The notes under the pieces were generated by a model. That model had not been told where the DNA came from, did not search any database, and saw nothing but the letters and a program-made list of their open reading frames with translations. Below, in pieces: positions 1,331-43,648 of a stretch of 64,000 nt of DNA. Source of the DNA: Parcubacteria bacterium C7867-007 (GTDB lineage Bacteria > Patescibacteriota > Minisyncoccia > Phycocordibacterales > Phycocordibacteraceae). How positions within the stretch are numbered: the first letter of the stretch is position 1; each line of letters starts with the position of its first letter. The stretch covers positions 68,997 through 132,996 of the forward strand of contig LFCQ01000002.1 of the NCBI GenBank assembly GCA_001189195.1. Reading direction: 5' to 3'. A program made the position numbers and the translations under genes.

Positions 1331-1365
1331 TATGACGTATTGATGAAAAAGAAATAACCAGACTA

Positions 1366-1869
1366 TTATCTACGATCCGCTAAACCAGCTATTGCTAGTG
1401 CAATTGCATCTAACTCGTCGTCCAACCGTTTCTTTGGGGGAAGGGAAATAAGATGAGGAATCATACGTGCGATACCCACCTTATCTGAAGCACCGTATCC
1501 TGTAACCGCCAACTTCACTTGTTGAGGTGCATACTCTTGAACAGGAATCTGAGCAGCACCAGCAGCAGCAAGAATTGCACCACGTGCCTCCGCAACACCA
1601 ACGGCTGTTTTTTTGTTGGTACTAAAAAAGAGTGTTTCTAATGCAAGAATATCTGGCTGGTACTTTCGTATAACATCAGCTACTGCTTTATATACAACAG
1701 CTAAACGTAACTCCCTCAATCCTTTTGGAGGAACCACACAATCACTCCACACATGAACAGGTTTGCTGGCATCTCCTTCAAGTACAGCAATGCCTAAGCG
1801 GTCATATCCAGGATCAATAGCTAACACACGACGAAGACTATTCTTCGGTGCTTTCATATCCCCGTGCAT
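1366..1869 (-). CDS. ruvC: Holliday-junction resolvase RuvC
   Basis: RVLAIDPGYDRLGIAVL N-terminal RNase-H-like motif, catalytic acidic residues, C-terminal DDELDAIALAI; its end overlaps the start of yebC as in the usual yebC-ruvC arrangement. Confidence 0.9.
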   Translation of the reverse strand: MHGDMKAPKNSLRRVLAIDPGYDRLGIAVLEGDASKPVHVWSDCVVPPKGLRELRLAVVYKAVADVIRKYQPDILALETLFFSTNKKTAVGVAEARGAILAAAGAAQIPVQEYAPQQVKLAVTGYGASDKVGIARMIPHLISLPPKKRLDDELDAIALAIAGLADRR

Positions 1870-2395
1870 TCGTTACCACCTCCTGTACATCTTCGTGGTC
1901 GTCAAGCAATTGAAGAATCTGAGTGAACTTTGTTTCGTCCTCACCCGCAACATCCATTAGTGGTTCGTTTGGGGTATATCGACCGGTAGGGGATTTGGTG
2001 AACGCCCACAGCGCACTCCCCGGGGTACCGAGTTCGTAGCCATTCTTTGAAAGGAGATGTTTCACTTCCTGCGTGGTGCGGTTCTTGTTATCTGTAAGTG
2101 CGGAGACAATAAGGGCAGAGCCTCCTGGTCCATAGAATTCATATGAGACTGCATCCAACTCACCCGCATCCTTCGAGTTACCCTTAGCAACTGCACGCTC
2201 AATTGTGTCCTTTGGCATATTTGCTGCTTTGGCCCGATCGATAGCTGCAATAAGGCCTGGTGCAGAAAGATTCCCGTTAGCTTTCTTAGACTCAATGGTT
2301 ATAAACTTCCCAAGACGTGAGAAGGTTCGTGACTTCGCCGCATCGGCTGCACCCTTCTGGTGCTTAATTTGAGACCATTTACTGTGTCCTGACAT
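1838..2395 (-). CDS. yebC: YebC/PmpR-family probable transcriptional regulator
   Basis: MSGHSKWSQIKHQKGAADAAKS... is the hallmark N-terminus of the YebC family; lies upstream of ruvC. Confidence 0.85.
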   Translation of the reverse strand: MSGHSKWSQIKHQKGAADAAKSRTFSRLGKFITIESKKANGNLSAPGLIAAIDRAKAANMPKDTIERAVAKGNSKDAGELDAVSYEFYGPGGSALIVSALTDNKNRTTQEVKHLLSKNGYELGTPGSALWAFTKSPTGRYTPNEPLMDVAGEDETKFTQILQLLDDHEDVQEVVTNARGYESTEE

Positions 2396-2530
2396 GTAGT
2401 AACTATAGCAAAATAGGATGAACAGCCCAAAGTTCGATCCCTAGTCTCCCAGCACTCAACTTGTATAAAAGAAAGCCCTCGGCACTGGGATGAAACCAGA
2501 TACCGAGGGCACGCAGGACTAGATCCTGGT

Positions 2531-2665
2531 CTAGATTTTCGTCCCGCCGTCGCCGAGAGAGGAGGTGCCATCGTCACCGATGATGAGCGAACCTCCGTCG
2601 TGGATGCCGTCGCTGCCACCGTCTCCGATACCAGCCGAGCCTCCGTCGCCAATGCCCTGATTCAT
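2531..2665 (-). CDS. 44-aa Gly/Asp-rich peptide with five tandem 8-residue repeats (IGDGGSxx): MNQGIGDGGSAGIGDGGSDGIHDGGSLIIGDDGTSSLGDGGTKI
   Basis: Open frame with RBS AAAGGA 8 nt upstream; stem-loops downstream (2470-2525); local GC about 62%; the 117-aa ORF listed at 2299..2652 in the track is a different frame and looks spurious. Confidence 0.45.
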   Translation of the reverse strand: MNQGIGDGGSAGIGDGGSDGIHDGGSLIIGDDGTSSLGDGGTKI

Positions 2666-2725
2666 CGAGCTAGCGATCCTTTCTGCCACTCAAATGCGGC
2701 AGAATCAAAATAGCATGGAAATCCG

Positions 2726-2753
2726 GGTTCCAACATCGTCCCAGACTGCCAGC
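2726..2753 (+). repeat. Conserved 28-nt element, copy 1 (GGTTCCAACATCGTCCCAGACTGCCAGC)
   Basis: Exact match to the consensus; lies about 60 nt upstream of the peptide gene on the opposite strand. Confidence 0.8.
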
Positions 2754-2810
2754 AAATAAGAGAAGCCGTCCTCCAACGGTTCTCCGGTAGGAGATGGGGA
2801 CGGCTTGGTG

Positions 2811-3083
2811 CTAGCGTCGATGAATCTGAAGTCGGCGATTAGGCCATAGTAAGGCGCGATTACGTGTATCCATATCTGCAACCACGAATCGAAGGCTTGC
2901 TCCAGAAATGCGCCTGTTTATGCTAACGATCGTAAAACCCTGCGGGTAGTTGCCGTCTGCTGCATGCATATTCCGGACCTCTACCGGTTCGTTATGGTTT
3001 GCTCGCAGTGTAGTGATGACATCCGACCTGCCCTGCATCCGCTCGAGTTGCGACCACTCTTCGTCGGTGAGATGGTGAAGCAT
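2811..3083 (-). CDS. Hypothetical protein (90 aa)
   Basis: ORF with RBS GGGAGGA 7 nt before the ATG; hairpin (aagccgtcc...ggacggctt) immediately downstream at 2760-2800. Confidence 0.5.
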   Translation of the reverse strand: MLHHLTDEEWSQLERMQGRSDVITTLRANHNEPVEVRNMHAADGNYPQGFTIVSINRRISGASLRFVVADMDTRNRALLWPNRRLQIHRR

Positions 3084-3131
3084 GGTTCATCCTCCCGTTG
3101 ATCTGACAGCACCCTAACATAGCTGCAAAAA

Positions 3132-3159
3132 GGTTCCAACATCGTCCCAGACTGCCAGC
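3132..3159 (+). repeat. Conserved 28-nt element, copy 2
   Basis: Exact consensus. Confidence 0.8.
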
Positions 3160-3242
3160 AATAAAGCGAAAACCCTTCTCTTAATTATTGCCGTAGCAGT
3201 AATTAAGAGAAGGGTTTTGTGTGGGTTGTACGAATTCAATTT

Positions 3243-3503
3243 TTACTCTGATACTTGCAGTAGTTTTTGTGCGATTCGAACTGCAGTATCGTAACGAACG
3301 TATGCGCCGAGCAAGGTATCAACTAGTAGATTCGACGAATCACTCGTTACACCCTCTTCAATGTGCGCTGTGCATCTCTGAAGGGCTGAATCTAGGAAGT
3401 CTCGAGCAAAATGCGATTTCTCGTCTCGAGAGCCATCGCGCACATAGCGCGGCAGACTATCTATAACTTCTTCTAGAGCTTCATCGTAAAGAAGGGTAAT
3501 CAT
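3243..3503 (-). CDS. Hypothetical protein (86 aa, acidic and helical)
   Basis: ORF with RBS AGAAGGA; terminator-like hairpin downstream (3168-3215); TTGACA then a TATATAAAA box upstream. Confidence 0.5.
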   Translation of the reverse strand: MITLLYDEALEEVIDSLPRYVRDGSRDEKSHFARDFLDSALQRCTAHIEEGVTSDSSNLLVDTLLGAYVRYDTAVRIAQKLLQVSE

Positions 3504-3579
3504 CTATTAGTCCTTCTGGAAGTGAACGGGCTTACGCTTATATTTAAGCATTTTATATAAATTCTGTCAATAGTACCCT

Positions 3580-3607
3580 GGTTCCAGCATCGTCCCAGAC
3601 TGCCAGC
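3580..3607 (+). repeat. Conserved 28-nt element, copy 3 (one mismatch: CCAGC for CCAAC)
   Basis: 27/28 match to consensus; followed on the minus strand by TTGACAGAATTTATATAAAA. Confidence 0.8.
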
Positions 3608-3665
3608 TATATAAAACGAAATCGCCTAACAGGGTCAGGCGACTCCGGTAGGCGATGGTTTAATT

Positions 3666-4097
3666 CTATATTTTAGAAACAACGTGAACTCGCTTGAAGT
3701 TTTCGGCTGCTCGTTTCAGTTCAGGAGTAGGTGCTTTGCTGATCAAGATTCTGAGGCTTCGTGTGCCGATTGGACGACCGTCCAACCATCCATAGAGACT
3801 GGACCTGCTGAAGCCAAGCTGTCTGGCTGCCGTTCGGCCGTCATTGAAGTGGTGCATGTAGGCTTGGACCAGCTCCTTCAGTGCGACCTCGTAGTCAGTC
3901 GCACAGGTGAGGACTTGTGTACGTGGTTTCAGGCTGAGATCGATGCGGATGAGGAAGGCGTCTTTTTCGGACACATGCCTCGCAAACTCATCAATCCGCT
4001 GCTTGATTTCCTCAATCGAGCCCACGTCATCAGCGGTCAGTGACAGAGCCATACTCTTTGTGTCGTCAACAACTTGCAATGCCATTTGCGGCTCCAC
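3666..4097 (-). CDS. Small DNA-binding protein with a C-terminal Fis/NtrC-type helix-turn-helix (TAARQLGFSRSSLYGWL)
   Basis: The HTH signature is read directly from the translation; the overlapping plus-strand ORF at 3684..4043 has poor composition; terminator hairpin downstream at 3620-3660. Confidence 0.6.
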   Translation of the reverse strand: MEPQMALQVVDDTKSMALSLTADDVGSIEEIKQRIDEFARHVSEKDAFLIRIDLSLKPRTQVLTCATDYEVALKELVQAYMHHFNDGRTAARQLGFSRSSLYGWLDGRPIGTRSLRILISKAPTPELKRAAENFKRVHVVSKI

Positions 4098-4150
4098 AGA
4101 ATGAATCTTGTTTCTTTATGTACTATTTATATAGATTTGTCAAATACAAA

Positions 4151-4178
4151 GGTTCCAACATCGTCCCAGACTGCCAGC
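4151..4178 (+). repeat. Conserved 28-nt element, copy 4
   Basis: Exact consensus; followed on the minus strand by TTGACAAATCTATATAAAT. Confidence 0.8.
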
Positions 4179-4189
4179 ACTTTTTAGGT

Positions 4190-4495
4190 ACAAAAAAGAA
4201 AAGCCGCGACTGGGTGGGTCGTCGGCTTGTAGTTCTTCATGGCTGCTGTTTCAACCCGGCAGTGGTTCCTTGAAGGATTCGGCTTTATAACTCGCCGTAA
4301 GTATCTCTCCTGTGTCAGGCGTTACCCTAACTGCTCGGAATAGTGAGGTGATCTCTAAAGCGGAGACGTCGCCTTATGAGGCCTCAAAACCCCTAAGTTC
4401 TATGGAATTCCTTCCACAAGAGTGAGCCTGCAACCAGGCGCTCTCTACAAGGTTCGAACTAGCCGTAGCTCCCTGTATGAGAAAACCTTATCACG
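4190..4495 (-). ncRNA. Candidate roughly 300-nt non-coding RNA of unknown class
   Basis: Minus-strand TTGACA at 4513-4508 then a TATACA box, the same promoter module as at copies 3 and 4; strong intrinsic terminator on the minus strand (AAGCCGACGACCCACCCAGTCGCGGCTT + TTTCTTTTTT, plus-strand coordinates 4191-4231); no ORF longer than 18 codons in any minus frame; many internal palindromes (GUUCGAAC, GCCUGGUUGCAGGC, UGGAA-GGAA-UUCCA, GAGGCCUC, GACGUC). Confidence 0.45.
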
Positions 4496-4523
4496 GTGTG
4501 TATATTCTGTCAAGTGGCGGCCT

Positions 4524-4551
4524 GGTTCCAACATCGTCTCAGATTACCAGC
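4524..4551 (+). repeat. Conserved 28-nt element, copy 5 (GGTTCCAACATCGTCTCAGATTACCAGC, 4 mismatches)
   Basis: Sits between the leftward candidate-ncRNA promoter and the start of the next plus-strand gene. Confidence 0.7.
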
Positions 4552-4575
4552 CAGAAGTTACGCTATACTCACTCC

Positions 4576-4944
4576 ATGATGGAGCTCATTACTTCAATAC
4601 TTGTACTAATCGTATTGTTTTTAGGGATAATCGCAGGGCCCCTATTTCTCGGGGCTCTATTTGTAGATCAAGCTCTGCATAAAAAGCAGATACCAAGGGT
4701 ACACAAGTTAGGTGCCTTCCTCGTTGCTTTTGTGGTGATTACATCTGCAATTATTTTTGGAGTCTATGCGGTCCAAAAAACAGTACAACAATGTACGGAT
4801 CAGGGCAGTTACTTGGAGTTTAATGCTGACGGAGCTATACGCTATTCAAAGCGACTTAATCAGCTTCATTTACGCTGTCACACGAAAGACGGAACACTTT
4901 ATAAATTGAAACCTCTCATCGATCTTAAAGTTTATTCTGGATAA
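4576..4944 (+). CDS. Small two-TM membrane protein (122 aa)
   Basis: Hydrophobic helices LITSILVLIVLFLGIIAGPLFLGALFV and LGAFLVAFVVITSAIIFGVYAV; start chosen at the internal ATG 4576 after a TATACT box; the longer track ORF starting at 4477 runs through the repeat. Confidence 0.5.
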   Translation: MMELITSILVLIVLFLGIIAGPLFLGALFVDQALHKKQIPRVHKLGAFLVAFVVITSAIIFGVYAVQKTVQQCTDQGSYLEFNADGAIRYSKRLNQLHLRCHTKDGTLYKLKPLIDLKVYSG

Positions 4945-4950
4945 ATATCT

Positions 4951-4977
4951 AGTTCCGACATCGTCCCAGGCTGTCGG
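4951..4977 (+). repeat. Conserved element, copy 6 (AGTTCCGACATCGTCCCAGGCTGTCGG, degenerate)
   Basis: Core ACATCGTCCCAG is conserved; a TTGACA-N17-GATAGT promoter and the RBS TAGGAG follow before the gene at 5100. Confidence 0.6.
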
Positions 4978-5099
4978 TAAAGTAGGGTGCAAATACATTT
5001 TATGAAATTGACAAGACCAACTGAGAAGTAGATAGTTCACGCGGAGTACAGTACTGGTCCAGCGTTAAACGGACCGAGCAACAGCGTTAGGAGCTAGCT

Positions 5100-5711
5100 A
5101 TGTCAGACTTTCCAAGTGCTCTTGAGCTTTTCGAACAGTTCAGGCCTCGTTTCGAACGAATCGAGCTTCGACCGATTGGGTGGTTGAGTCAGGACTACAA
5201 ACAGGTGCAGCTTTACGGGCTGCTCAACTACCGAGCAGGCAAAGAGGTGAAGTGGCATGACCGCTACACTTGCTCATTTGTCGATATAAAGGAGTCTGGT
5301 TTGCAGGTCACATTCACCTACGACCCCTCTTCTGAAGCCGACATCTTGAGTCAGTTCAGCAAAGCAGTCGCTCACCAAGTCACTGCTATGCTCTCTGGCC
5401 GCATTTTCCGACTTGCGCCTGCAGAGCCTTTTGAATGCCTTGTCGACGAGCATGGTCGGGAAGTCTCTCGACGACTGAATGTGGAATTGATCGGAGATCC
5501 GCTCCCGGGTCTCAGTCTGTACAACAGTGGATACAACACCGGCGAGTCCGGTTACTGGGATAGTTTTGTTCCGCGCGGCACACCTGAGGCTGAGGCGATT
5601 CAAGCTGCACTTACCTACCACTACAAGCAGTCGCTTAAAGCACGAGACGTCGCGACTGAACAGCAGGAAGCCAAAGTCCGTCTCGAAAAAGCACTAGTTC
5701 AGATTGCGTAA
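5100..5711 (+). CDS. Hypothetical cytoplasmic protein (203 aa)
   Basis: ORF with RBS TAGGAGCTAGCT before the ATG; no family recognised. Confidence 0.55.
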   Translation: MSDFPSALELFEQFRPRFERIELRPIGWLSQDYKQVQLYGLLNYRAGKEVKWHDRYTCSFVDIKESGLQVTFTYDPSSEADILSQFSKAVAHQVTAMLSGRIFRLAPAEPFECLVDEHGREVSRRLNVELIGDPLPGLSLYNSGYNTGESGYWDSFVPRGTPEAEAIQAALTYHYKQSLKARDVATEQQEAKVRLEKALVQIA

Positions 5712-5770
5712 GATCGATGGATCAGCCCCGGTAGAAATACCGGGGTACCTCTTTTAGTAGGTGCTTAGAT

Positions 5771-5790
5771 TAGAACATCGTCCCAGACTA
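5771..5790 (+). repeat. Conserved element, copy 7 (TAGAACATCGTCCCAGACTA, partial core)
   Basis: 17-nt core conserved; its 3' end runs into TACAAT about 45 nt upstream of the gene at 5840. Confidence 0.55.
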
Positions 5791-5839
5791 CAATTTCTTT
5801 TAAACTCACGAACAAAGTGCTGAATGGTACACTTTCACT

Positions 5840-6064
5840 ATGAAAAAACGTACCCCACTTGCAACCATGCGTTATGTAGCAAAGAACCTCCTTATCGTAG
5901 TTGGACTTGTGTTGATATGGCGTGGTATTTGGTACGTGCTTGATGGTATCGATCTCATGATCTTCGATGGGTCACATTTCTGGACCGGTCTATTTGGGAT
6001 AATAGTTGGACTAGCCATTCTTTATCTTCCGGACAACGACCTAAAAGAGATTGAGAAGCTTTAA
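5840..6064 (+). CDS. Small two-TM membrane protein (74 aa)
   Basis: LLIVVGLVLIWRGIWYVL and GLFGIIVGLAILYL hydrophobic segments. Confidence 0.5.
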   Translation: MKKRTPLATMRYVAKNLLIVVGLVLIWRGIWYVLDGIDLMIFDGSHFWTGLFGIIVGLAILYLPDNDLKEIEKL

Positions 6065-6115
6065 TTAGCTCCTTAGAAGTAGCAGGGGAGCGGACAGATC
6101 ACCAATACCTGATTG

Positions 6116-7108
6116 TTATCCCTGCAAATAGTCTTTTCCTTTCTGCGTAAGGATACGGCCACGAGAAGATCGCTCGATAAACCCAAGTCGTAGGAGGTAT
6201 GGCTCATACAAGTTTTCAACCGTATCACCATCCTCGTGTAGGGCGCTTGCGAGAGCACGCACACCTGCAGGACCTCCTTTAAACGAATCACGTAGTGTTT
6301 CAAGATAGCGGCGGTCGTCCTTAGTGAGACCAAGAGTGTCGATACCAAACAGAGCACACGCCTTATCACACACTGCAGCAGTGAGGGGCAGATTATGTAC
6401 TTGTGCGTAATCACGTACACGCTTAAGTAGAGCATTTGCAACACGTGGAGTCGCACGACTACGTGCCGCGATCTTTTCTACAACAGCGTCATCAACTTCC
6501 ATTGCAAGAAGGGAAGCAGAGCGCGCAACAATTGCACGAAGGTCTGCATCAGAATAGAAATCGAGTTGATACACACCACCACCAAAGCGTGAGCGCAATG
6601 GTCCTGAAAGTTGCGCAACGCGTGTGGTTGCTCCAACGAGAGTGAAAGGAGGAAGTGATAACTCCACGGTACGAGCACTGGGACCCTTCCCAAGAATGAT
6701 ATCTAGAGACCCAGATTCAAGTGCTGGATAAAGAAGTTCTTCAATCTTGCTAGAGAGCTGATGAATTTCATCTATGAAAAGCACCGTACCTGGTTCAAGG
6801 TTTGTGAGAATGGAGGCAAGATCTCCGGCACGTTCAATTGCAACGCCAGAGGTTGTTTTAACCGGAGCTTCAAGAGATTTGCCAATAAGGTGTGCGAGTG
6901 TGGTCTTACCAACGCCAGGTGGACCGTAAAAGAGAATATGCTCTGGCATATCCCCGCGCATCTTTGCAGCCTCTAAAACGATGTGTACATTATCCTTCAC
7001 GTGCCCCTGACCCACATATTCATCCCATACGGAAGGGCGAAGAGCCGCATCCAATGCCTGATCGCGCAGCTTGATAGGGAGGTCGGTATCGTTAGGAGTA
7101 CTTGACAT
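6116..7108 (-). CDS. ruvB: Holliday-junction branch-migration helicase RuvB
   Basis: Walker A GPPGVGKTTLA, Walker B LFIDEIHQL, sensor residues and a winged-helix C-terminus; start set at MSSTPND. Confidence 0.92.
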   Translation of the reverse strand: MSSTPNDTDLPIKLRDQALDAALRPSVWDEYVGQGHVKDNVHIVLEAAKMRGDMPEHILFYGPPGVGKTTLAHLIGKSLEAPVKTTSGVAIERAGDLASILTNLEPGTVLFIDEIHQLSSKIEELLYPALESGSLDIILGKGPSARTVELSLPPFTLVGATTRVAQLSGPLRSRFGGGVYQLDFYSDADLRAIVARSASLLAMEVDDAVVEKIAARSRATPRVANALLKRVRDYAQVHNLPLTAAVCDKACALFGIDTLGLTKDDRRYLETLRDSFKGGPAGVRALASALHEDGDTVENLYEPYLLRLGFIERSSRGRILTQKGKDYLQG

Positions 7109-7138
7109 AAAAACAGTGTGTGCTAGCATTGTATCACA

Positions 7139-7395
7139 TGAGGGTTGGCCTCATAAGTACCTTGCCTTGCGCAAGGTAATTTCTTTTTGTTCCCGCATAC
7201 CACCCTCTAGGCAAGGCTTGACGGCTTCAGGGCGACTCCCCAAGGCTTATCTGGTACTCACCTCGTAGTGAGCCCGCTGGATATCACCTCAGGCGTTTCG
7301 ACCGCCGTCCTATTTATAGGACGGAGTGCCTGGAGGGTAGTGTGCAGGATCTCCTAAGAAAAACACCGCTTCATTGAAGCGGTGTTTTTCTTTAT
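7139..7395 (+). ncRNA. Structured non-coding region ending in an intrinsic terminator: candidate sRNA or cis-regulatory leader
   Basis: Candidate promoter TTGTAT-N16-TCATAA at 7155-7182; palindromes CCTTGCGCAAGG and GTCCTATTTATAGGAC; terminator AAAAACACCGCTTCATTGAAGCGGTGTTTTTC at 7350-7392; no ORF; also contains the ruvB promoter (TGATACAAT) on the other strand. Confidence 0.3.
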
Positions 7396-7401
7396 ATCTG
7401 C

Positions 7402-7884
7402 TTGATTAGCACCCTATCGCTCTCGGGTATACTCCTACGCGTGATAAAACGATTCTTCGATTGGACACGACTTAAGCGTCAACTTGATCTCGTCAAAGAG
7501 AAAGAATTTTCCTTCAGCGAAGGACAAATATGGTGGTGCCACACTGGAGAAAATATTGGTCATGAGTTAAATGGAAAAGGGACAGGTTTTGCACGACCAG
7601 TTTTGATTTTGAAGAAGTATGACCAATATACATTTCTTGGATTACCTCTCACTACAAAAAATAAATTTGGAACCTGGTATGTTTCCTTGTATACAAAAGC
7701 TGGCTTAAGAACAGTGGTGCTTTCACAAGAGAGAACATTTGGCTATCGCCGCATGCAAAATAGGATTCAACACGTATCCAAAAGAGACGAAAATTATATT
7801 CGCACCATGTATCTCAAGCTACACAGTAAAAATCAACCCCGCACCATTACTGATGCGGGTCGCGGGGAGTCCCGAAATCCTTGA
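7402..7884 (+). CDS. MazF/PemK-family endoribonuclease-like protein with an N-terminal extension of about 38 aa; start codon uncertain (TTG 7402 or GTG 7441)
   Basis: EGQIWWCHTGENIGHELNGKGTGFARPVLILK ... LGLPLTTKNKFGTWYVSL ... VVLSQERTF follows the MazF/PemK pattern (GDIWxV...GsEqgG.RPavVls ... cvP.TT...g.pf.v.l...q); candidate sigma-70 promoter TTAGCA-N16-TATACT at 7404-7431; no cognate antitoxin ORF seen. Confidence 0.5.
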   Translation: MISTLSLSGILLRVIKRFFDWTRLKRQLDLVKEKEFSFSEGQIWWCHTGENIGHELNGKGTGFARPVLILKKYDQYTFLGLPLTTKNKFGTWYVSLYTKAGLRTVVLSQERTFGYRRMQNRIQHVSKRDENYIRTMYLKLHSKNQPRTITDAGRGESRNP

Positions 7885-7933
7885 AACAAATCAAGGCACA
7901 GTCAGTCTATCAAAATATTTCAAACGCCACAAA

Positions 7934-9586
7934 TTAATGGCGTGGAGGATCAATCACTCTAAAGACCTCTTCAAGTGTCGTTTGTCCCGCAAGAGCTTTT
8001 AAGATGCCGTCTTGTGCCATGGTGAGGAATCCTTGGCGAACTGCTTCCTTTGCAATATCGCTTGCCGATGGTGCGGTACGTAGGAATTCTGCGAGCTGGT
8101 CGTCCATGAAAATTGCTTCATATACACCCACGCGACCTTTGTATCCTGTTCCATCTGGACCTTCTGCACCAACCTGATCAATTGAAGTTGGTATGAGTGA
8201 AGAGTCTGCGAGTGGAGCGAACACATGCTTAATGAGTTCCTTCTCTTGGTCTGTAGTGGCACGCATGGTTCGTGTCTCAGGATTAAGAGTACGAATAAGA
8301 CGCTGGGCCATTGCAACAGAGACCGCAGATGGAATCGTTTTAGGATCCACACCCAGATCAAAAAGGCGAGGGAAGGCACCAGCTGCATCATTGGTGTGGA
8401 GTGTGGTGAATACGAAGTGTCCGGTGAGAGCAGCTTGTACCGCCACTTCCGCCACCTCTGCATCACGAATTTCTCCCACCATGATCACATCAGGGTCCTG
8501 ACGAAGAATAGAGCGAAGACCTGTTGCAAAGGTATAGTCTGCGCCGTCTGTTTGAGTTTGAACGATACCCGGAAGATGATATTCAACAGGATCTTCGATC
8601 GTAATTATTTTAATTTCTGGTGTATGCACTTCCTGAAGGAAGGTATACAACGTCGTTGTCTTGCCCGAACCCGTTGGACCGGTGGTGAGAAGCATACCGT
8701 TTGGGCGGTGAATCTCAGTAGCGAGACGTTCCAAAAGCTTCGGATGAATACCAAGATCATTGAGAGAGTGATTGATGGCATTGGGGTCAAGAATACGCAT
8801 CACAATAGACTCCCCGTAGTTACCCGGGATAATCGAAGTACGTATTTCTATATCCGTTCCCTGTACCGCAACTGTGAAGCGGCCATCCTGTGCACGGGTC
8901 ACGACATTCAATTTAAGTCCTGAAAGAATCTTTATACGAGATTCAATAAGACGGTATACGTGGGGATCAAATGTATAAACTTCTGTGAGTTGGCCGTCAA
9001 GACGCATGCGCATACGTACTACAGTTTCCTCAGGTTCGAAGTGAATATCAGACGCCTTCATTGCAAGCGCTGAAGTTAGAACACCTTCGAATATGTGTGA
9101 AACCTGTGCGGTCTTCTTTGCGCCAAGTGCATCATCTAAATGTGCTTTTAGTTCTGTGATAGTTGAAAGGGAACCACTGTCAGTACCATTAATGGTAAAG
9201 GTTCCTTCCTTGCTCTGTTCTGCATAAGAGAGGTCTGCGTATTTAGTTAGTGCGAAGTTCAAACCGCGTTCAGAAATAAGAAACTTCTCAACGATGTATC
9301 CTTGAGTATCCAACTGCTCAAGAAGCAGACGAGTTGCATCTGGTTCTGTACTACGCAGTGCAACAGAAAGATGTTTGCCATTCTTTTCAAATGCCACTGC
9401 CTGTGCAGCCTTTGCATCTACCTCTGATATAACACGAAGTGCGTCTGCGTTAACCGGAATAAGAGTCAGATCGGTATAGGGGATACCGTATTTGTCCGAA
9501 AGAAGACGGGCAAGATCCTCTTCTTCCTGTTCACGCAGGCTTTTGAGTTTTGCGTCTTCAGCGTCTGTATCAAAATGAGCAGGCAT
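7934..9586 (-). CDS. pilB: Type IV pilus assembly / type II secretion ATPase (PilB/GspE family)
   Basis: Walker A GPTGSGKTTTLY, Asp box, His box TLHTND, Walker B DPDVIMVGEIRD; start set at MPAHFD. Confidence 0.9.
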   Translation of the reverse strand: MPAHFDTDAEDAKLKSLREQEEEDLARLLSDKYGIPYTDLTLIPVNADALRVISEVDAKAAQAVAFEKNGKHLSVALRSTEPDATRLLLEQLDTQGYIVEKFLISERGLNFALTKYADLSYAEQSKEGTFTINGTDSGSLSTITELKAHLDDALGAKKTAQVSHIFEGVLTSALAMKASDIHFEPEETVVRMRMRLDGQLTEVYTFDPHVYRLIESRIKILSGLKLNVVTRAQDGRFTVAVQGTDIEIRTSIIPGNYGESIVMRILDPNAINHSLNDLGIHPKLLERLATEIHRPNGMLLTTGPTGSGKTTTLYTFLQEVHTPEIKIITIEDPVEYHLPGIVQTQTDGADYTFATGLRSILRQDPDVIMVGEIRDAEVAEVAVQAALTGHFVFTTLHTNDAAGAFPRLFDLGVDPKTIPSAVSVAMAQRLIRTLNPETRTMRATTDQEKELIKHVFAPLADSSLIPTSIDQVGAEGPDGTGYKGRVGVYEAIFMDDQLAEFLRTAPSASDIAKEAVRQGFLTMAQDGILKALAGQTTLEEVFRVIDPPRH

Positions 9587-37460: not shown

Positions 37461-39137
37461 ATGGAAGACCGGATCCGCCACGCGGTACAGAAATCACTCG
37501 AACAACTTGGCGCAACTGGCGTTACGTTTGCAGTGGAGTGGCCAGCAGACCCGGCACACGGAGACTTTGCCGTGAATGCAGGTTTTGCAGCAAGCAAGGT
37601 GCTTGGAAAGAATCCCCGTGATATCGCAGAGATCATCGTACCAGTACTAGAAAAAGCACTGGGAGATGATGCGACGTGTATTGAAGTGGCGGGTGCTGGA
37701 TTCATTAACATCACTCTGTCACCAGCAGCTATTTCAAATCTCCTCACCGAAGCAAAAGGTGATACATGGGGAGTTGGTACGGCACATGCAGGTGAACGAA
37801 TAATGATTGAGTATTCAAACCCCAATCCTTTCAAAGAGATGCATATCGGCCATCTTATGAGCACTATCATTGGCGAAGCAACATCTCGTTTAATGGAATC
37901 ATCTGGTGCTAACGTAGTACGCGATACGTACGGAGGCGATGTTGGTCCACACGTAGCAAAGGCTATCTGGGGACTACGTGATAAGGGTGTGGCTGAAACA
38001 CCAACCACAGAAGATATTGGTACTGCATACGCACACGGCTCACGTGCATATGAAGAAAGCGAAACAGCAAAGAAGGAAATCGAAACACTAAATGCGGAGA
38101 TCTACGCAATGCTTGCAAAGGACCCCGCCAAACACGATGCGGAAGAGCGCTCTCTCCATGAGACTTGGGTTCGTGGAAGGGAAGTATCAGTGACGGCGTA
38201 CCGCCAACTCTGGGATCGACTCGGTTCACACTTTGACTACACTATCTTCGAAAGTGATACCACCCCTATCGGTATGCGTATTGTGCAGGATGAAATTAAG
38301 AACAATGTCTTTGAAGAAAGTGAAGGTGCCGTTATTTATCGTGGAGAGAAAGTTGGACTACACACACTCGTATTCATCACTTCATACGGAACCCCTACAT
38401 ACGAGACTAAAGACATTGGTCTCGCATTCTGGAAAGAGGAGCATGCACCAACGGATAAAGTATTCATCCTCACCGCAATGGAGCAGGTGGGGCACTTCAA
38501 GATTGTTATCGCTGCACTCAATGAGTTTGCTCCACAGCTCGCCAGCAAGATGCAACACATTTCACACGGCCTCCTCAGACTCGCCAGTGGAAAGATGTCT
38601 TCTCGAGAAGGAAATGTCATCACAGCAGACGGCCTGATCCGTGAGGTGATCGAAAGAGCTAGTGAAAAGAATGAAGACCCGCTTGTCGCTGAGCAGGTAG
38701 CACTTGGTGCTATTAAATATATGATCCTTCGCCAAGCACCCGGTGGAGATATCATCTTTGATATGGAGAAGTCTCTTTCTCTTGAAGGAGATTCTGGACC
38801 GTATCTGCAGTACGCACTTGTACGCGCAACGTCAATTCTCTCTGCGTCACAAGTACCACCTGCAGAAACGACATCTTTTGAAAGCGAAGCACCGCTTCTC
38901 GCACGTTTGATCACTCGATTCCCAGAGATCGTTGCACGAGCAGAAGAACTCCGTGGCCCACACATTCTTGTTACATACCTCACCCAACTAGCAGGGGAGT
39001 GGAACTCCTTCTATGCAACGGGAAAGATCATTGGAAGTGAGAACGAAGCAAGCACTCTTGCTCTCGTACAAGCATTCGTAACAACGATGCGTAACGGACT
39101 TGGTATTCTTGCAATCCCCGTACCGGAGAAGATGTAG
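37461..39137 (+). CDS. argS: Arginyl-tRNA synthetase
   Basis: HIGH motif as HIGHLMSTIIGEA, class-I fold, anticodon-binding DALR domain at the C-terminus. Confidence 0.9.
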   Translation: MEDRIRHAVQKSLEQLGATGVTFAVEWPADPAHGDFAVNAGFAASKVLGKNPRDIAEIIVPVLEKALGDDATCIEVAGAGFINITLSPAAISNLLTEAKGDTWGVGTAHAGERIMIEYSNPNPFKEMHIGHLMSTIIGEATSRLMESSGANVVRDTYGGDVGPHVAKAIWGLRDKGVAETPTTEDIGTAYAHGSRAYEESETAKKEIETLNAEIYAMLAKDPAKHDAEERSLHETWVRGREVSVTAYRQLWDRLGSHFDYTIFESDTTPIGMRIVQDEIKNNVFEESEGAVIYRGEKVGLHTLVFITSYGTPTYETKDIGLAFWKEEHAPTDKVFILTAMEQVGHFKIVIAALNEFAPQLASKMQHISHGLLRLASGKMSSREGNVITADGLIREVIERASEKNEDPLVAEQVALGAIKYMILRQAPGGDIIFDMEKSLSLEGDSGPYLQYALVRATSILSASQVPPAETTSFESEAPLLARLITRFPEIVARAEELRGPHILVTYLTQLAGEWNSFYATGKIIGSENEASTLALVQAFVTTMRNGLGILAIPVPEKM

Positions 39138-39214
39138 GTTGCGAAAGCGCACTAAAGACGATAGGGTAGGCAACAGATTGTTCGTGGTGAACATTCTGTT
39201 CGTCGGGAGGTTTC

Positions 39215-39535
39215 ATGCCGAAAAGTAATGGGGAAAAGCCGCTGGATGACAATAACCTGACGGCTGGACACTTGAACTATCGGAATGCGAGGGCGTTTCT
39301 CGCCCTTTCGCACGAAGATATGTACGAGCTGGCTCGCCAGTGGTATGCCACTCATCTGACGGTGGACCAAGCGCGCGCCGACTGCCGTGAGATGCACGCC
39401 GGCATCGCGTCGGGCGCGTTCGCAATGCCGGACTATGTCAAGGTGCTCGTGGACAAGGCTCGTGAGCAGAGCAGCAATGCGCGCGTCTTCTTCAAGCTCG
39501 AGACCGCGGTGAACCGCGAACTCCTGGCGGCCTAA
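39215..39535 (+). CDS. GC-rich hypothetical protein (106 aa) with its own terminator
   Basis: About 60% GC against a 45-47% background; terminator GGCCCGGCCGCGTAAGCGACCGGGC + TTTCCTTTTT. Confidence 0.45.
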   Translation: MPKSNGEKPLDDNNLTAGHLNYRNARAFLALSHEDMYELARQWYATHLTVDQARADCREMHAGIASGAFAMPDYVKVLVDKAREQSSNARVFFKLETAVNRELLAA

Positions 39536-39627
39536 CGAGGTTCGCCGACAAACGAAACAGATGGCCCGGCCGCGTAAGCGACCGGGCTGTTTCCTTTTTA
39601 TGATACGAGCGATAGGATAAGTAAATC

Positions 39628-42600
39628 ATGGCGGAAATGGAGAACGATGAAAAGAAGGTGTCTGAAGTAGCTGCTCGTGAAGAGGAAATCCTTGCGTACT
39701 GGAATGAGCAAAAGACTTTCAAGGCATCACTTGAGAAGCCATCACCAAGTGGTGAATATGTTTTCTATGATGGTCCTCCATTTGCAACAGGTCTCCCACA
39801 CCACGGCCACATTCTTGCCGGTACCATAAAGGATGCAATACCGCGTTATAAGACGATGCGTGGATTCCATGTACGCCGACGTTGGGGTTGGGACTCACAT
39901 GGTCTTCCTCTGGAGAACATCATTGAGAAAGAACTCGGTATAAAGACGAAGCGAGACATCGAAGAGATGGGTGTGTCTGTATTTAATGAAGCGGCACGTA
40001 GCGCGGTGCTTCGTTATGCCGATGAGTGGAAGCGCATCGTTCCCCGTATTGGACGCTGGGTGGACATGGAGGATGACTACAAAACCATGGACACTACATA
40101 CACAGAGTCGGTATGGTGGGCATTCAAGAAACTCTTTGATAAGGATCTTATAGAAGAAGGATTCAAGGTGATGCAGCTTTGTCCACGTTGTGGCACAACA
40201 CTTTCAAACTTTGAAGTGAGTCAGGGATACAAAGACATTAAAGATATAACTGCATATGCGAAGTTCGAGCTCGAAGATGAACCTGAGACCTACCTTCTTG
40301 CGTGGACCACAACGCCCTGGACTCTTCCAGGAAACATCGCGCTCGCGCTCGGTACTCAGATTGAATACGTAAAGGTTGAGAAGGGTGGCGCGCAGTACAT
40401 TCTTGCGAAGCCACTCGTTGAAAAAGTATTTGGTGAAGATCACGGAGAGGTAACCCCTGTTACTAAATCTGAGATCCTTGGACGGGTATATAAACCTGTC
40501 TTCCCAGGCGTTATGGATGCGCTTGCAGAAGGAAAGGAACGAGACAAGCTAGGTGCTGCATTCCGTGTGTATGAAGCAGACTTTGTAACGGCAGAAGATG
40601 GAACGGGTATCGTACATATTGCACCGGCATTTGGTGAAGATGATCTCAATCTCTCACGTGCACACGGGTTGCCAATTGTGCATCACGTAGATCGTGATGG
40701 TCGAATGATGAGTGCAGTGCCTGTGGTTGCAGGAAAGCTTGCAAAGCCTAAGGGGCAGTGGTGGGAGACCGATGCCCTCATTGTTGAATACCTTGGAGAG
40801 AAACTCTTTAAGACTGAAGAAAAAGTACACAGCTACCCACACTGTTGGCGCTGTGACACTCCACTCCTTAACTACGCATCAAGTTCGTGGTTCGTTCGTG
40901 TGCCAACTTTCAAGGACAAACTTGTTGCAGAGAACGATAAAGTTAAATGGGTGCCAGAAGCAATTGGAAAGAACCGTTTCGGTGACTGGCTAAACAATGC
41001 ACGAGACTGGGCAATTTCACGTAGTCGCTATTGGGGTGCACCTATTCCGGTATGGAAAAACGAGAAGACGGGAGCGCTCCGTGTGTTTGGTTCAGTCGAT
41101 GACATGAAGGGTCACGCAAAGAAAAGCGGTAACCGGTACTTCGTTATGCGTCATGCGGAAGGTGAACATAATATAAAAGGTATTGCTGCAAAGGGTGATG
41201 AGACCTTCCGTGCATCTCTAACAGAGACTGGTCGTGGACAAGCAGAAAAGAATGCATCAGCACTCATGCATGCAAACGTAACGCGCATCATTGCTTCACC
41301 GCTCACGCGTGGATGTGAAACCGCAGTGATTGTAAAAGAAACACTCGGGCTACAGGGTATTGAGATCATCCAAGACGAACGACTCCGTGAGTTTGATTTT
41401 GGAGAACTAGACGGCAAACCGATAGGGGAGTTTGTGAGATGGCGTGAGGTTAATACGTATGCGGACCGTATTCCCGGAGGCGAAAGCTATCAAGATGTTA
41501 AGAACCGTCTTGGTGCATTTCTCTACGATCTTGAACGTACGTATCAGAATGAAACAATTCTCATCGTTACGCACGGCGTAGGTATTGAAACAATCAATGC
41601 CGTTGCACAAGGAATAGATGCAGACGCGTCCAAGAAACTATCCGCAGAGATGGTGCCCTTGTATGCAACACCTATTGAACTGGATTTCACTCCGCTGCCA
41701 CACAACACAAACTATGAACTCGATCTCCATCGTCCATACATAGATGAGTATGCGCTCATAGATACTGATGGTGCTGCACTGCATCGTGTTGCTGATGTCT
41801 TCGACTGCTGGTTTGAGTCTGGTTCAATGTCTTATGCACAGGACCACTATCCATTTGAGAAAGATAATTTTAATCCTGAAAGTGGATTCCTTAAGAAATC
41901 AAAAGGATATCCTGCAGACTTTATTGCAGAGGGATTGGACCAGACACGTGGCTGGTTCTACTCAATGATTGTTCTTGGTACCGCGCTTTTTGGACATTCG
42001 CCGTACAAGCACGTGATCGTTAACGGACTGATTCTTGCGGAAGATGGAAGGAAGATGTCTAAGAGCCTGAAGAACTACCCAGAACCTATGGATGTGGTGG
42101 CTAAATATGGTGCAGATGCACTTCGTCTCTATCTCCTCTCCTCACCACTGATGCGCTCAGAAGACCTCCGATTCTCAGAGAAGGGAGTGGCGGATGTGGG
42201 TAACAAAATAATTGGACGCCTACACAATACTCTCGTGTTCTATCAGACGTATGCAATGAACGATGTGCCGGAAAGTGTTTCAAGTAATCATGTTCTTGAT
42301 CGATGGATCACTGCACGCCTTAAGGAGGTACGTGATGAAGTAACAAACGGACTTGAGTCGTATGAACTTGATCGTGCAGCACGCCCACTCGCGCTACTGG
42401 TTGATGATTTATCAACATGGTATTTGCGCCGCTCACGTGACCGCGTAAAAGATTCGGTTGAGGCTGCAGCGACCCTTCGTTCAGTACTGCGTACTTCTGC
42501 ACTACTCTTCGCACCGTTCGCACCGTTTTATGCAGAATATCTATGGAGTAAGATTCGTTTTGCTAAAGACCCTGAAAGCGTGCACCTTGCAGACTGGCCA

Positions 42601-43089
42601 GAAATGAAGGGCAAAGACGAGAAGGTGCTTCTAGAGGATATGGTACTTGTTCGTGAACTTGCCTCAGAAGCACTTAAACTTCGTCAGCAGGCTGGCATTG
42701 TTGTGCGTCAGCCACTGGCATCACTGAGTGCACCAACCATACCGCGCACCGCAGAGCTTATTGAGATTCTGAAGGAAGAGGTAAACGTTAAGGGTGTTCT
42801 AAAGAGGGAGGGAGAGATGTCTCTTGATACCGAGCTTACTGATGAACTAAAACGTGAAGGTGATGTACGTGCCTTTATGCGTGCACTTGCTGATGCACGC
42901 AAGGACATGAATCTATCACCAAAAGATGTGGTGCGAGTTGTTGCTGACCATGCCGCAAAAGATATGCTCACCGGTCTCAGCATTGCAGGACTTGCTGAGC
43001 TTTCATTCAGTGATTCAGTTGAAGGACCCTATACTGCCGAACTTTCTTCCACGGAGATAGGATTCACCGTTACACTCGATGCGGCATAA
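39628..43089 (+). CDS. ileS: Isoleucyl-tRNA synthetase carrying an inserted histidine-phosphatase (phosphoglycerate-mutase-like) domain
   Basis: HIGH (HHGHILAG) and KMSKS present, editing domain, WCISR-like DWAISRSRYWGAPIPVW; between that and LHRPYIDE...DVFDCWFESG lies a roughly 190-aa insert with RHAEGEHN, GRGQAE, SPLTRGCETA, REFDFGELDG and the catalytic THG. Confidence 0.9.
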   Translation: MAEMENDEKKVSEVAAREEEILAYWNEQKTFKASLEKPSPSGEYVFYDGPPFATGLPHHGHILAGTIKDAIPRYKTMRGFHVRRRWGWDSHGLPLENIIEKELGIKTKRDIEEMGVSVFNEAARSAVLRYADEWKRIVPRIGRWVDMEDDYKTMDTTYTESVWWAFKKLFDKDLIEEGFKVMQLCPRCGTTLSNFEVSQGYKDIKDITAYAKFELEDEPETYLLAWTTTPWTLPGNIALALGTQIEYVKVEKGGAQYILAKPLVEKVFGEDHGEVTPVTKSEILGRVYKPVFPGVMDALAEGKERDKLGAAFRVYEADFVTAEDGTGIVHIAPAFGEDDLNLSRAHGLPIVHHVDRDGRMMSAVPVVAGKLAKPKGQWWETDALIVEYLGEKLFKTEEKVHSYPHCWRCDTPLLNYASSSWFVRVPTFKDKLVAENDKVKWVPEAIGKNRFGDWLNNARDWAISRSRYWGAPIPVWKNEKTGALRVFGSVDDMKGHAKKSGNRYFVMRHAEGEHNIKGIAAKGDETFRASLTETGRGQAEKNASALMHANVTRIIASPLTRGCETAVIVKETLGLQGIEIIQDERLREFDFGELDGKPIGEFVRWREVNTYADRIPGGESYQDVKNRLGAFLYDLERTYQNETILIVTHGVGIETINAVAQGIDADASKKLSAEMVPLYATPIELDFTPLPHNTNYELDLHRPYIDEYALIDTDGAALHRVADVFDCWFESGSMSYAQDHYPFEKDNFNPESGFLKKSKGYPADFIAEGLDQTRGWFYSMIVLGTALFGHSPYKHVIVNGLILAEDGRKMSKSLKNYPEPMDVVAKYGADALRLYLLSSPLMRSEDLRFSEKGVADVGNKIIGRLHNTLVFYQTYAMNDVPESVSSNHVLDRWITARLKEVRDEVTNGLESYELDRAARPLALLVDDLSTWYLRRSRDRVKDSVEAAATLRSVLRTSALLFAPFAPFYAEYLWSKIRFAKDPESVHLADWPEMKGKDEKVLLEDMVLVRELASEALKLRQQAGIVVRQPLASLSAPTIPRTAELIEILKEEVNVKGVLKREGEMSLDTELTDELKREGDVRAFMRALADARKDMNLSPKDVVRVVADHAAKDMLTGLSIAGLAELSFSDSVEGPYTAELSSTEIGFTVTLDAA

Positions 43090-43648
43090 ATACACCACGG
43101 CAGCTGTTACCTTGGCACGCACTCCACTTTCGGAAGCGAGTTCACTGGTAACACTTCTCACGGCAGACTTCGGGGTGCTGCGTGCACGTAGCCAAGGACT
43201 GCGTAAACCAGGGGCAAAAATGAGTGCAGGTCTTCAAACACTAGCAGAGTCTGATGTAACGCTTTTAAAGGGGAAGGAGGGGTGGAGACTTGCTGGTTCA
43301 GTGCTTGCCAGAGATTGGGCACATGTATTGCCAAGCAAAGCACGCACTCGTGCCGGGCGTGTTGCAGAGCTTATGCTTCGTTTCGTGCATGGAGAGGCCG
43401 CAGACCCAACGCTTTTCACTATCTATACGAATTTCATAACAGTACTCCCATCTCTTAATGAAGAAGATCAGGACGCTGCAGAATGTCTCGCAGTTTTACG
43501 TATACTTCGTACTCTTGGGCTAGATGCAGGGGTGATTCCTGGGGAAGGGGATGAAGACTACACCGATATTGCACGCAGTGCTGTACGTGATGATCGTGCC
43601 GCGATAATCTCCCGTATTAATCGAGGTATTAGTGCATCTGGTTTATAA
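43079..43648 (+). CDS. recO: DNA repair protein RecO
   Basis: N-terminal OB fold with YTTAAVTLARTPLSEASSLVTLLTADFGVLRARSQG; overlaps the ileS stop. Confidence 0.65.
   Translation: MRHKYTTAAVTLARTPLSEASSLVTLLTADFGVLRARSQGLRKPGAKMSAGLQTLAESDVTLLKGKEGWRLAGSVLARDWAHVLPSKARTRAGRVAELMLRFVHGEAADPTLFTIYTNFITVLPSLNEEDQDAAECLAVLRILRTLGLDAGVIPGEGDEDYTDIARSAVRDDRAAIISRINRGISASGL

Follow-up and report, generated by a model that had tools for sequence, protein, structure and literature searches.

The window analyzed here, a 64-kb (64,000-nucleotide) stretch of contig LFCQ01000002.1 from Parcubacteria bacterium C7867-007, carries an isoleucyl-tRNA synthetase (IleRS) gene, ileS, whose product contains a complete histidine phosphatase nested inside the synthetase chain (Table 1). 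The gene is one unbroken frame of 1,153 amino acids (aa) on the forward strand, and a protein cluster search returned a deposited record identical to its product, [quoted passage not shown] The protein scored 837.3 bits against the NCBIfam ileS equivalog model TIGR00392 (cutoff, 621.4), in two stretches with the insert between them. Likewise, its Pfam tRNA-synt_1 match (E = 8.5e-136) was split around His_Phos_1 (PF00300) and followed by Anticodon_1. The His_Phos_1 match itself reached 109.5 bits, against a gathering cutoff of 21.7, and covered profile positions 2 to 169 of 194.

Table 1. Features of ileS and its neighbors, in window coordinates (CP, connective peptide; ORF, open reading frame; hp, free histidine phosphatase gene of relatives)
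Feature	Position	Strand	Basis
argS (arginyl-tRNA synthetase), upstream member of the argS-(hp)-ileS-recO block	37461..39137	+	ORF list; synteny with L082, L084, L089-L091
106-aa ORF in the argS-ileS spacer, in the slot of the relatives' free phosphatase	39215..39535	+	ORF list; profile searches
ileS, 1,153-aa type-2 IleRS with nested phosphatase	39628..43089 (stop codon included)	+	Single ORF; TIGR00392; type-2 IleRS structural matches
HIGH signature, reading HHGH, residues 58-61	39799..39810	+	Motif check
CP1 editing-domain motifs AWTTTPWTLPGN (residues 225-236) and GTGIVHIAPAFG (325-336)	40300..40635	+	Motif check; invariant columns
CP3, first part, residues 473-496 (two strands and one helix, ending where the module is inserted)	41044..41115	+	Alignment; AlphaFold2 secondary structure
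Nested module, residues 497-696 (whole free ~190-aa histidine phosphatase plus short C-terminal linker FTPLPHN)	41116..41715	+	Missing from insert-less IleRS of L082, L084, L089-L091; colinear with free ORFs
Pfam His_Phos_1 (PF00300), residues 505-671	41140..41640	+	Pfam, E = 2.2e-31
RHA-E-x-x-x-N motif: R508, H509 (catalytic nucleophile), N515	41149..41172	+	Conservation in homologues
R561, second phosphate-binding arginine (SPLTR)	41308..41310	+	120/120, 81/81
E588, predicted proton donor (DERLRE)	41389..41391	+	116/120, 81/81; aligns to PhoE ERLRE motif
H649, second catalytic histidine (LIVTHG)	41572..41574	+	120/120, 81/81
CP3, second part, and Rossmann fold re-entry (ELDLHRPYID ... DVFDCWFESG)	41716..41823	+	Alignments; motifs
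KMSKS signature, residues 809-813	42052..42066	+	Motif check; K809 and K812 invariant in homologues
Anticodon-binding domain (Pfam Anticodon_1), residues 891-1030	42298..42717	+	Pfam, E = 3.3e-28
recO-like gene, start overlapping the ileS end by 11 nt	43079..43648	+	RecO_N, E = 3e-10; same place in L082, L084, L089, L090

The signatures of both enzymes were each found where a first-pass annotation, made from the letters of the DNA, had listed them. These are DWAISR (residues 460 to 465), WGAPIPVW (469 to 476), LHRPYID (700 to 706), and DVFDCWFESG (723 to 732) in the synthetase and RHAEGEHN (508 to 515), SPLTR (557 to 561), DERLREFDFG (583 to 592), and LIVTHGVG (645 to 652) in the phosphatase. 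The HIGH motif, the KMSKS motif, and the editing domain, which that annotation had called intact, are indeed all present (HHGH, KMSKS, AWTTTPWTLPGN, and GTGIVHIAPAFG); the consensus of 120 homologues at the HIGH position is HYGH. Both the Thr-rich and the GTGxVHxAP motif of the CP1 editing domain occur in the window enzyme, and the columns W226, T227 to T229, W231, T232, G325, G327, V329, and H330 were invariant across the 120 homologues. The window protein is an IleRS (class Ia) with its synthetic, editing, and anticodon-binding parts intact and is predicted to charge tRNAIle with isoleucine. No second IleRS, no valyl-tRNA synthetase (ValRS), and no free phosphatase were found inside the 64-kb window. 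The host is probably the housekeeping type-2 IleRS of the organism.

The window enzyme belongs to the type-2 (eukaryote-like) IleRS. Its sequence matched the solved human IARS1, Thermus thermophilus, yeast, Candida, and Priestia megaterium IleRS2 enzymes at E values of ~1e-199 to 1e-194, compared with 1e-86 to 1e-76 for type-1 (Staphylococcus aureus and Escherichia coli-like) enzymes, and Foldseek likewise gave E = 1e-80 for type 2 versus 1e-55 for type 1. The homology to type-2 IleRS (1ILE; 8C8U/8C8V; 7D5C, 6LDK) is full length (E ~1e-199), with template modeling (TM) scores of the window model of 0.89 to T. thermophilus IleRS 1ILE and 0.80 to P. megaterium IleRS2 8C8V. The domain order is common to all of them: Rossmann fold, CP core, CP1, CP2, CP3, anticodon-binding domain, and C-terminal domains. 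Type-2 IleRS is the mupirocin-resistant kind and has the HxGH, KMSKS, and editing motifs in common with the window enzyme. Unlike the solved type-2 enzymes, the window IleRS has ~200 extra residues, a second enzyme, in CP3, where they have a 5- to 8-residue loop.

Alignments to solved IleRS stop at residues 494 to 499 of the window protein and pick up again at residues 698 to 699, with ~200 window residues standing in for positions 483 to 487 of T. thermophilus IleRS or 490 to 497 of human IARS1. The module boundaries, at residues ~497 to 696, were set by alignment to insert-less Patescibacteria IleRS. As window residue 494 aligns to residue 496 of Candida albicans IleRS, whose CP3 subdomain spans residues 473 to 534 (PMC7191050), the module lies inside CP3, past two strands and the first helix (AlphaFold2 strands at 475 to 478 and 484 to 486; helix at 490 to 494). 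The first-pass annotation had put the insert in the catalytic core; the insertion is real, but the host loop is part of the CP3 subdomain and not of the Rossmann core itself. Its estimate of about 250 residues agrees with the 246 between W476 and D723, the distance from W476 to L700 being 223. The CP3 zinc knuckle (CxxC...CxC) is gone from the two CP3 halves of the window IleRS (41044 to 41115 and 41716 to 41793), unlike in the T. thermophilus enzyme, which retains its cysteines, as do the insert-less IleRS of five Patescibacteria loci (L082, L084, and L089 to L091). Loss of zinc binding in CP3 may go with the insertion.

The nested module is a histidine phosphatase of superfamily branch 1 that resembles PhoE, PspA, and CobC and lies outside any characterized specificity group. 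Among the 120 closest homologues, R508, H509, R561, and H649 were conserved in all 120 and E588 and N515 in 116. In a more divergent set of 81 species-representative sequences, R508, H509, R561, E588, and H649 were invariant, and N515 was present in 80. Mean pairwise identity over these 81 sequences was only 38% for the module but 62 to 70% for the host catalytic core. Invariant catalytic residues in so divergent a module indicate that the active site is under selection while the surface drifts, and the module is predicted to be catalytically active. The RHA variant of the usual RHG motif also occurs in the phosphoserine phosphatase PspA (4ij5, RHAESEWN).

AlphaFold2 produced a confident two-enzyme model of the whole window protein (mean predicted local distance difference test score [pLDDT], 92.4; predicted TM score, 0.86), with pLDDT values of 94 to 97 over the module; modeled alone, the module reached a pLDDT of 90.3. 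The prediction of structure had been proposed with the first description of the insert, as had its intact phosphatase fold, which is borne out by the His_Phos_1 match (2.2e-31), the model, and the presence of all signature blocks. In Foldseek searches, the module alone matched PspA, PhoE, GpgP, CobC, and phosphoglycerate mutases (PGMs) with a probability of 1.00 and TM scores of 0.70 to 0.78. The nearest solved folds are exclusively small metabolite phosphatases, namely PspA (TM score, 0.75), PhoE (0.71), a riboflavin-pathway HFP, GpgP, TIGAR, and CobC; the longer cofactor-dependent PGMs (dPGMs) rank lower. The label "PGAM-like" given to the module was right in pointing to a complete histidine phosphatase, but the enzyme is PhoE/PspA-like and not a true phosphoglycerate mutase. 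Compared with PspA (Hydrogenobacter thermophilus, 4IJ5), PhoE (Geobacillus stearothermophilus, 1EBB/1H2E), CobC, and the GpgP Rv2419c (TM scores, 0.70 to 0.75; root mean square deviation, 2.4 to 3.1 Å), the module has the same features of a small branch 1 phosphatase: a length of ~190 to 210 aa, an RH[GA] nucleophile motif (RHAE in PspA also), two Arg residues, a Glu, and a second His. It differs from them in being nested rather than free-standing and is only 24 to 31% identical to them.

The insertion is not peculiar to the window. Protein clusters were drawn from NCBI, JGI, ENA, and Logan assemblies, and PF00300 was present in all of the best 120 clusters at 90% identity, which were 51 to 76% identical to the window protein and 1,019 to 1,212 aa long (most >1,120 aa). 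A scan of one genome per GTDB species with a 273-residue junction-spanning query gave at least 522 confirmed stretches, from which 80 loci were kept. The junction segment was essentially full length in all 80, that is, in at least 80 species-representative genomes of Kaiserbacteria, Adlerbacteria, Taylorbacteria, Nomurabacteria, Lloydbacteria, Vogelbacteria, Wolfebacteria, and other Paceibacteria. Except for genes cut by a contig end, module and synthetase share one frame in all 80 loci, and neither the flanks of these loci nor the 64-kb window holds a second copy of the module. The G+C content of the insert (0.467) is close to that of the remainder of ileS (0.477), with no shift at either junction. 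An assembly chimera or a hidden frameshift, which had been named as what would overturn the first interpretation, is excluded by the 120 of 120 clusters and the single frame in 80 loci; we rejected both on the grounds of one frame in 81 loci, recurrence in hundreds of assemblies, and the lack of a G+C break. The two-enzyme polypeptide is genuine and conserved across the Paceibacteria (Parcubacteria) lineage of the Patescibacteria, or candidate phyla radiation (CPR). The earlier suggestion of a functional chimera rather than a disrupted gene is thus supported by the single frame, the invariant catalytic residues, the kept synthetase motifs, and the AlphaFold2 model.

A search of 1.84 billion cluster representatives with the module alone returned 713 matches at E ≤ 1e-10, with IleRS fragments and free proteins of ~190 aa among them. 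Free single-domain phosphatases adjoined an insert-less ileS in seven of the seven loci examined (L082, L084, L086, L087, L089, L090, and L091). The gene order is argS-hp-ileS-(x)-recO in L082, L084, L089, and L090, hp-ileS in L087, argS-hp-CYTH-ileS in L091, and argS-hp followed by a convergent ileS in L086; the gap between hp and a codirectional ileS is 1 to 25 nucleotides (nt) (L082, L084, L087, L089, and L090). The window block (thyX, glyA, argS, the 106-aa ORF, ileS, recO, a DUF11 protein gene, and a class II synthetase gene) corresponds gene for gene to that of L082, except that the phosphatase lies inside ileS. The free Patescibacteria phosphatase (P0196 family) is 32 to 37% identical to the module, occupies the same argS-...-ileS-recO block, and runs colinear over its entire length with window residues 499 to 685; an N-x-Y motif before the RHG strand is common to both. 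It differs from the module in being a separate gene whose partner IleRS is 818 to 962 aa long and has a short CP3 loop that keeps the zinc knuckle. The free family comprises 322 matches at E ≤ 1e-8 of 186 to 206 aa from Patescibacteria, including Staskawiczbacteria, and carries the JGI label "broad specificity phosphatase PhoE." We infer that the nested enzyme is the fused counterpart of this conserved hp-ileS gene pair, i.e., an internalized operon partner. A plausible route would be tandem duplication of hp-ileS followed by deletions.

The argS-ileS spacer of the window (39138 to 39627) held no phosphatase remnant (hmmsearch --max, all E > 0.2) and no regulatory RNA such as a T-box (Rfam matches at chance level, E > 0.5). 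Its 106-aa ORF gave only a subthreshold HTH_ParB match, and its G+C content is locally raised (0.56 to 0.62, versus ~0.48). Downstream, the 11-nt overlap of ileS with the recO-like gene (43079 to 43089) suggests translational coupling. Among the relatives with a free phosphatase, ileS of L086 was called as two ORFs owing to a lone in-frame TGA (4346 to 4373, minus strand) at the conserved Trp codon of HSYPHC-W-RC. Read as Trp, it gives one full-length IleRS; the TGA may reflect a sequencing error, a mutation, or UGA recoding, and argS and hp of that locus end in TAG and TAA, with no internal TGA. In L091, a CYTH (triphosphate tunnel metalloenzyme) gene at 5570 to 6160 lies between the free phosphatase and ileS (6173 to 8629); this ileS encodes only 818 aa, without the region matching window residues ~1012 to 1132.

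Related modules also occur elsewhere in class Ia synthetases. Among the 150 best representatives from the module search, modules were mapped to the CP1 region, to the CP3 site of the window, between HRPYID and DxWFxSG, between DxWFxSG and KMSKS, and past KMSKS, i.e., to four or more sites besides that of the window, in both IleRS and ValRS. The anticodon-binding and C-terminal domains were free of modules, as were both ends of the proteins. NCBIfam models identified the hosts as IleRS in P0145, P0223, P0249, P0254, and P0270 and as ValRS in P0278, P0253, and P0123. Copy numbers range from one to four per synthetase, with single modules, tandem pairs, and four in one protein. The full R-H-N-R-E-H set was present in 138 of 166 domain copies across all architectures, the exceptions being mostly truncated fragments or conservative changes. 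In the synthetases with two to four modules (P0123, P0145, P0147, P0182, and P0253), the catalytic residues are likewise complete in nearly every copy, except that Glu is replaced by Ala in copy 1 of P0253 and Asn by Ala in copy 3 of P0123.

PF00300 was detected in ~35 of the 120 closest ValRS clusters (1,050 to 1,185 aa, on contigs of up to 914 kb); these clusters are intermixed with insert-less ValRS from Patescibacteria of the Magasanikbacteria type. JGI labels one nested form "valyl-tRNA synthetase/broad specificity phosphatase PhoE." The L094 locus, with a nested ValRS, and the insert-less L092 and L093 loci have the synteny eno-iPGM-iPGM-...-valS-tyrS-argS in common (1 to 6000 or 1 to 8000), in which (pgk ...) eno and two tandem paralogues of cofactor-independent PGM (iPGM) lie a few kilobases upstream of valS in these Magasanikbacteria-type genomes. 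The ValRS of L094 and L093 differ by a clean 180-aa module that has no linkers and are otherwise 80% identical, so that the gain or loss must have been recent there. Inspection of the junction sequences of this ValRS insertion/deletion revealed neither repeats nor mobile-element signatures.

Several further arrangements of these domains were observed. The IleRS P0203 (JGI, 11-kb contig) has three foreign domains: its editing-domain region contains an in-frame IS200-like Y1 transposase domain (aa 340 to 461), the CP3 site is occupied by a His_Phos module, and a GNAT acetyltransferase comes past DxWFxSG. L088 (6001 to 7862) has no synthetase close by; it encodes a free 404-aa protein in which two His_Phos domains stand in tandem and, after it, a third His_Phos protein. 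The tandem proteins P0152, P0160, P0222, P0228, P0240, and P0255 form a family akin to the nested modules. Directly upstream of the double-module ValRS P0253 is a gene for a PemK-type toxin (L081, 162 to 596).

Aminoacyl-tRNA synthetases are recognized as frequent hosts of nested domains (PMC13114784). An enzymatic domain on a class Ia synthetase is already represented by NCBIfam NF040702 ([quoted passage not shown]); unlike that domain and the CP1 guests, the module has the fold and chemistry of a phosphomonoesterase. The canonical CP1 editing domain is nested like the module but acts on the synthetase's own product. The design of the window protein is also akin to the RNase H/acid phosphatase (PRK07238; Rv2228c type), in which a nucleic acid enzyme is fused to a CobC/PhoE-like phosphatase. 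Of the NCBIfam phosphatase models, PRK07238 gave the module its highest score, 78 bits, which is far below the cutoff of 326, and its fusion is end to end with a different partner enzyme, whereas the window phosphatase is nested. To our knowledge, the reason for the RNase H/phosphatase fusion has not been explained.

Taken as a whole, the explanation that we favor is a real nested two-enzyme IleRS with an active phosphatase that is tied to class Ia synthetases, to which we assign a probability of about 0.72. Its parts differ in strength. The architecture, the origin, and an active phosphatase are, jointly, very probable, and for a functional coupling of the module to class Ia synthetases, as opposed to an accidental fusion, the balance tips slightly in favor. 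Catalysis would proceed through an intermediate phosphorylated on His509, in which R508, R561, and H649 hold the phosphate; E588 would donate the proton. The substrate would be a small, diffusible phosphomonoester that resembles a nucleotide, a sugar acid, or a phospho-amino acid. Fusion would keep the phosphatase coexpressed and colocated with IleRS at a 1:1 dose, and the phosphatase would not have to be positioned precisely with respect to the aminoacylation site. Precise geometry indeed seems unneeded, and a diffusible substrate is favored, because the free phosphatase presumably functions in trans, nested forms are tolerated at many sites and in various copy numbers, and the nearest folds are those of metabolite phosphatases. 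Whether the substrate is a small molecule, rather than tRNA or protein, is an even call.

A number of observations weigh against this explanation. The module falls below every NCBIfam equivalog cutoff, including those for PspA (NF045917, 68.3 versus 350 bits) and CobC (TIGR03162, 75 versus 162.9 bits), so that its substrate cannot be transferred by homology. Free forms carry a β1-α1 loop motif, SSWPEKFxNP, that is not kept in nested forms, and the two may differ in specificity. Operon adjacency in very compact genomes is a weaker sign of a functional link than it is in large genomes. For ValRS, the conversion of a free neighbor into an insert was rejected, as no free phosphatase lies within 6 kb of the insert-less valS at L092 and L093; this route is supported for ileS only. 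Finally, neighbor-joining trees were built for the modules (200 bootstrap replicates) and for the masked hosts in order to count and orient the fusion or fission events, but they supported only shallow groups, such as the free ileS-adjacent family (56%) and the main ValRS-nested clade (64 to 88%). Deep nodes received <20%; in the host tree, split-gene IleRS are scattered among nested ones.

It is possible, though less probable than a functional tie, that an unrelated housekeeping phosphatase became fused through gene neighborhood and a permissive CP3 loop and was then kept for its own function after loss of the free copy, as in a neutral ratchet. The module is generic and PhoE-like, none of its conserved residues outside the superfamily core being unusual, and the tolerance of so many sites and copy numbers suggests that exact geometry is irrelevant. 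CP3 is structurally variable among IleRS (PMC7191050), and synthetases are known to be preferred hosts of domain insertions (PMC13114784). However, loss of a stop codon in the upstream gene would yield an N-terminal fusion, and all mapped synthetase-linked forms are nested, with none terminal. Independent nesting in ValRS without a neighboring free gene is hard to explain by proximity alone, and the presence of up to four intact copies in one synthetase also speaks against a mere passenger. We favor the functional link because all sites lie on the catalytic/CP side although N-terminal fusion would be easiest and because ValRS acquired the module without a neighboring precursor.

It is rather doubtful that repeated internalization from an IleRS-complexed operon partner was driven specifically by a phosphatase-dependent step linked to IleRS/ValRS charging. 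Such a step might be the removal of a tRNA 3'-end phosphate or pyrophosphate or the destruction of a phosphorylated inhibitor or near-cognate substrate. Somewhat more doubtful still is the healing of tRNA 3' ends, in which the module would strip a 3'-phosphate, a phosphate derived from a 2',3'-cyclic phosphate, or a toxin-added (pyro)phosphate from A76 and so enable charging. The module would then have a counterpart in the hydrolases that undo toxSAS pyrophosphorylation. By analogy, pyrophosphorylation of the CCA end, as by toxSAS toxins, blocks aminoacylation (10.1101/2021.04.30.441581, PMC11559606), and there are precedents for phosphatase activity on enzymes acting at the tRNA 3' end (PMC10673834, citing Yakunin 2004). 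Under this interpretation alone, the module would resemble the HD phosphohydrolase domain of bacterial CCA-adding enzymes (PMC10673834), which has an unrelated fold, depends on metal, and is a C-terminal appendage rather than a nested domain. In keeping with tRNA healing, the modules are nested without exception on or near the catalytic/CP side of the enzyme, which binds the acceptor end, and the anticodon-binding and C-terminal domains are free of them. However, the nearest structural relatives of the module are all small-molecule phosphatases, and we know of no histidine phosphatase that acts as an RNA-end phosphatase. The nested modules have no specific positive charge and are acidic (pI 5.7), and tRNA healing would offer no reason for the restriction to IleRS and ValRS. 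Charge was rejected as a clue to RNA binding in the free forms: these are basic (pI 9.4), but the adjoining ArgRS and IleRS are equally basic in those low-G+C, Lys-rich proteomes.

Two other roles are very unlikely. The superfamily includes dPGM, and the module matches the small archaeal dPGM model NF038349 weakly, which could suggest that the cell's cofactor-dependent phosphoglycerate mutase resides inside IleRS. This score (75.3 bits) is far below the cutoff of 225, those for PRK01295 (37 versus 316) and GpmB PRK03482 (63.7 versus 261) fall short as well, and the module is without the longer dPGM-specific elements, dPGMs ranking below PspA, PhoE, and CobC in the fold search. Furthermore, the L094 genome with its nested ValRS retains two iPGM genes beside enolase, as its insert-less relatives do, and replacement of the glycolytic mutase was rejected for that lineage only. 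Some branch 1 members are protein phosphatases, and the clustering of nesting sites near the catalytic core and the KMSKS region might fit an enzyme that, like PGAM5, Sts-1, or SixA acting on proteins, reverses an inhibitory phosphorylation of the synthetase or a partner (e.g., by HipA-like kinases). However, no kinase was seen in the conserved neighborhood at L082, L084, and L089 to L091, and the module is closest in fold to metabolite phosphatases rather than to Sts, PGAM5, or SixA.

There is next to no chance that the two-enzyme gene is an artifact or nonfunctional, whether as an assembly chimera, a hidden frameshift, a degenerate pseudoenzyme, or a spliced-out intein-like selfish insert, since module and synthetase share a frame in 81 independent loci, the design recurs in hundreds of assemblies, the catalytic residues are invariant, and the module is an ordinary free-standing enzyme elsewhere. 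The C-terminal linker ...PLPHN|T superficially resembles the His-Asn plus Thr junction of an intein, but although H692 and N693 are conserved, the residue that follows varies (E is commonest, in 38 of 120), and no Hint/intein fold was matched in Pfam.

Domain-bearing IleRS are thus already known as a kind (GNAT-bearing, NF040702), and it is the nested phosphatase that appears to be new. We found no description of a nested phosphatase-synthetase in the full text of 7.7 million PMC papers and bioRxiv, in the AARS Online paper, or in the 2026 domain-insertion survey (PMC13114784), in agreement with the first-pass annotation, to which the architecture was unfamiliar in a synthetase. Public databases label such proteins generically as "class I tRNA ligase family protein," and metabolic reconstructions of CPR bacteria could miss the module or score it as a PGAM-family enzyme.

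Aminoacyl-tRNA synthetases rank with the most thoroughly studied enzymes. Bacterial ones, editing domains apart, rarely have a catalytic domain nested in their core, and no link is known between phosphate-ester hydrolysis and the charging of Ile or Val. The phosphatase family described here has three kinds of tie to IleRS: an adjacent gene in the operon, a domain nested throughout a clade, and multicopy or multisite variants that also occur in ValRS. Together with catalytic residues under selection, this threefold tie is a classic signature of a functional partnership, found in the ultra-small and largely uncultured CPR bacteria. If the coupling is false, the locus would still be a clean natural case of a neighboring gene becoming a nested domain, and the recent presence/absence polymorphism in ValRS could reveal the mechanism. 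If it is true, the nested phosphatase would point to an accessory activity that is new to translation or to the quality control of tRNA.

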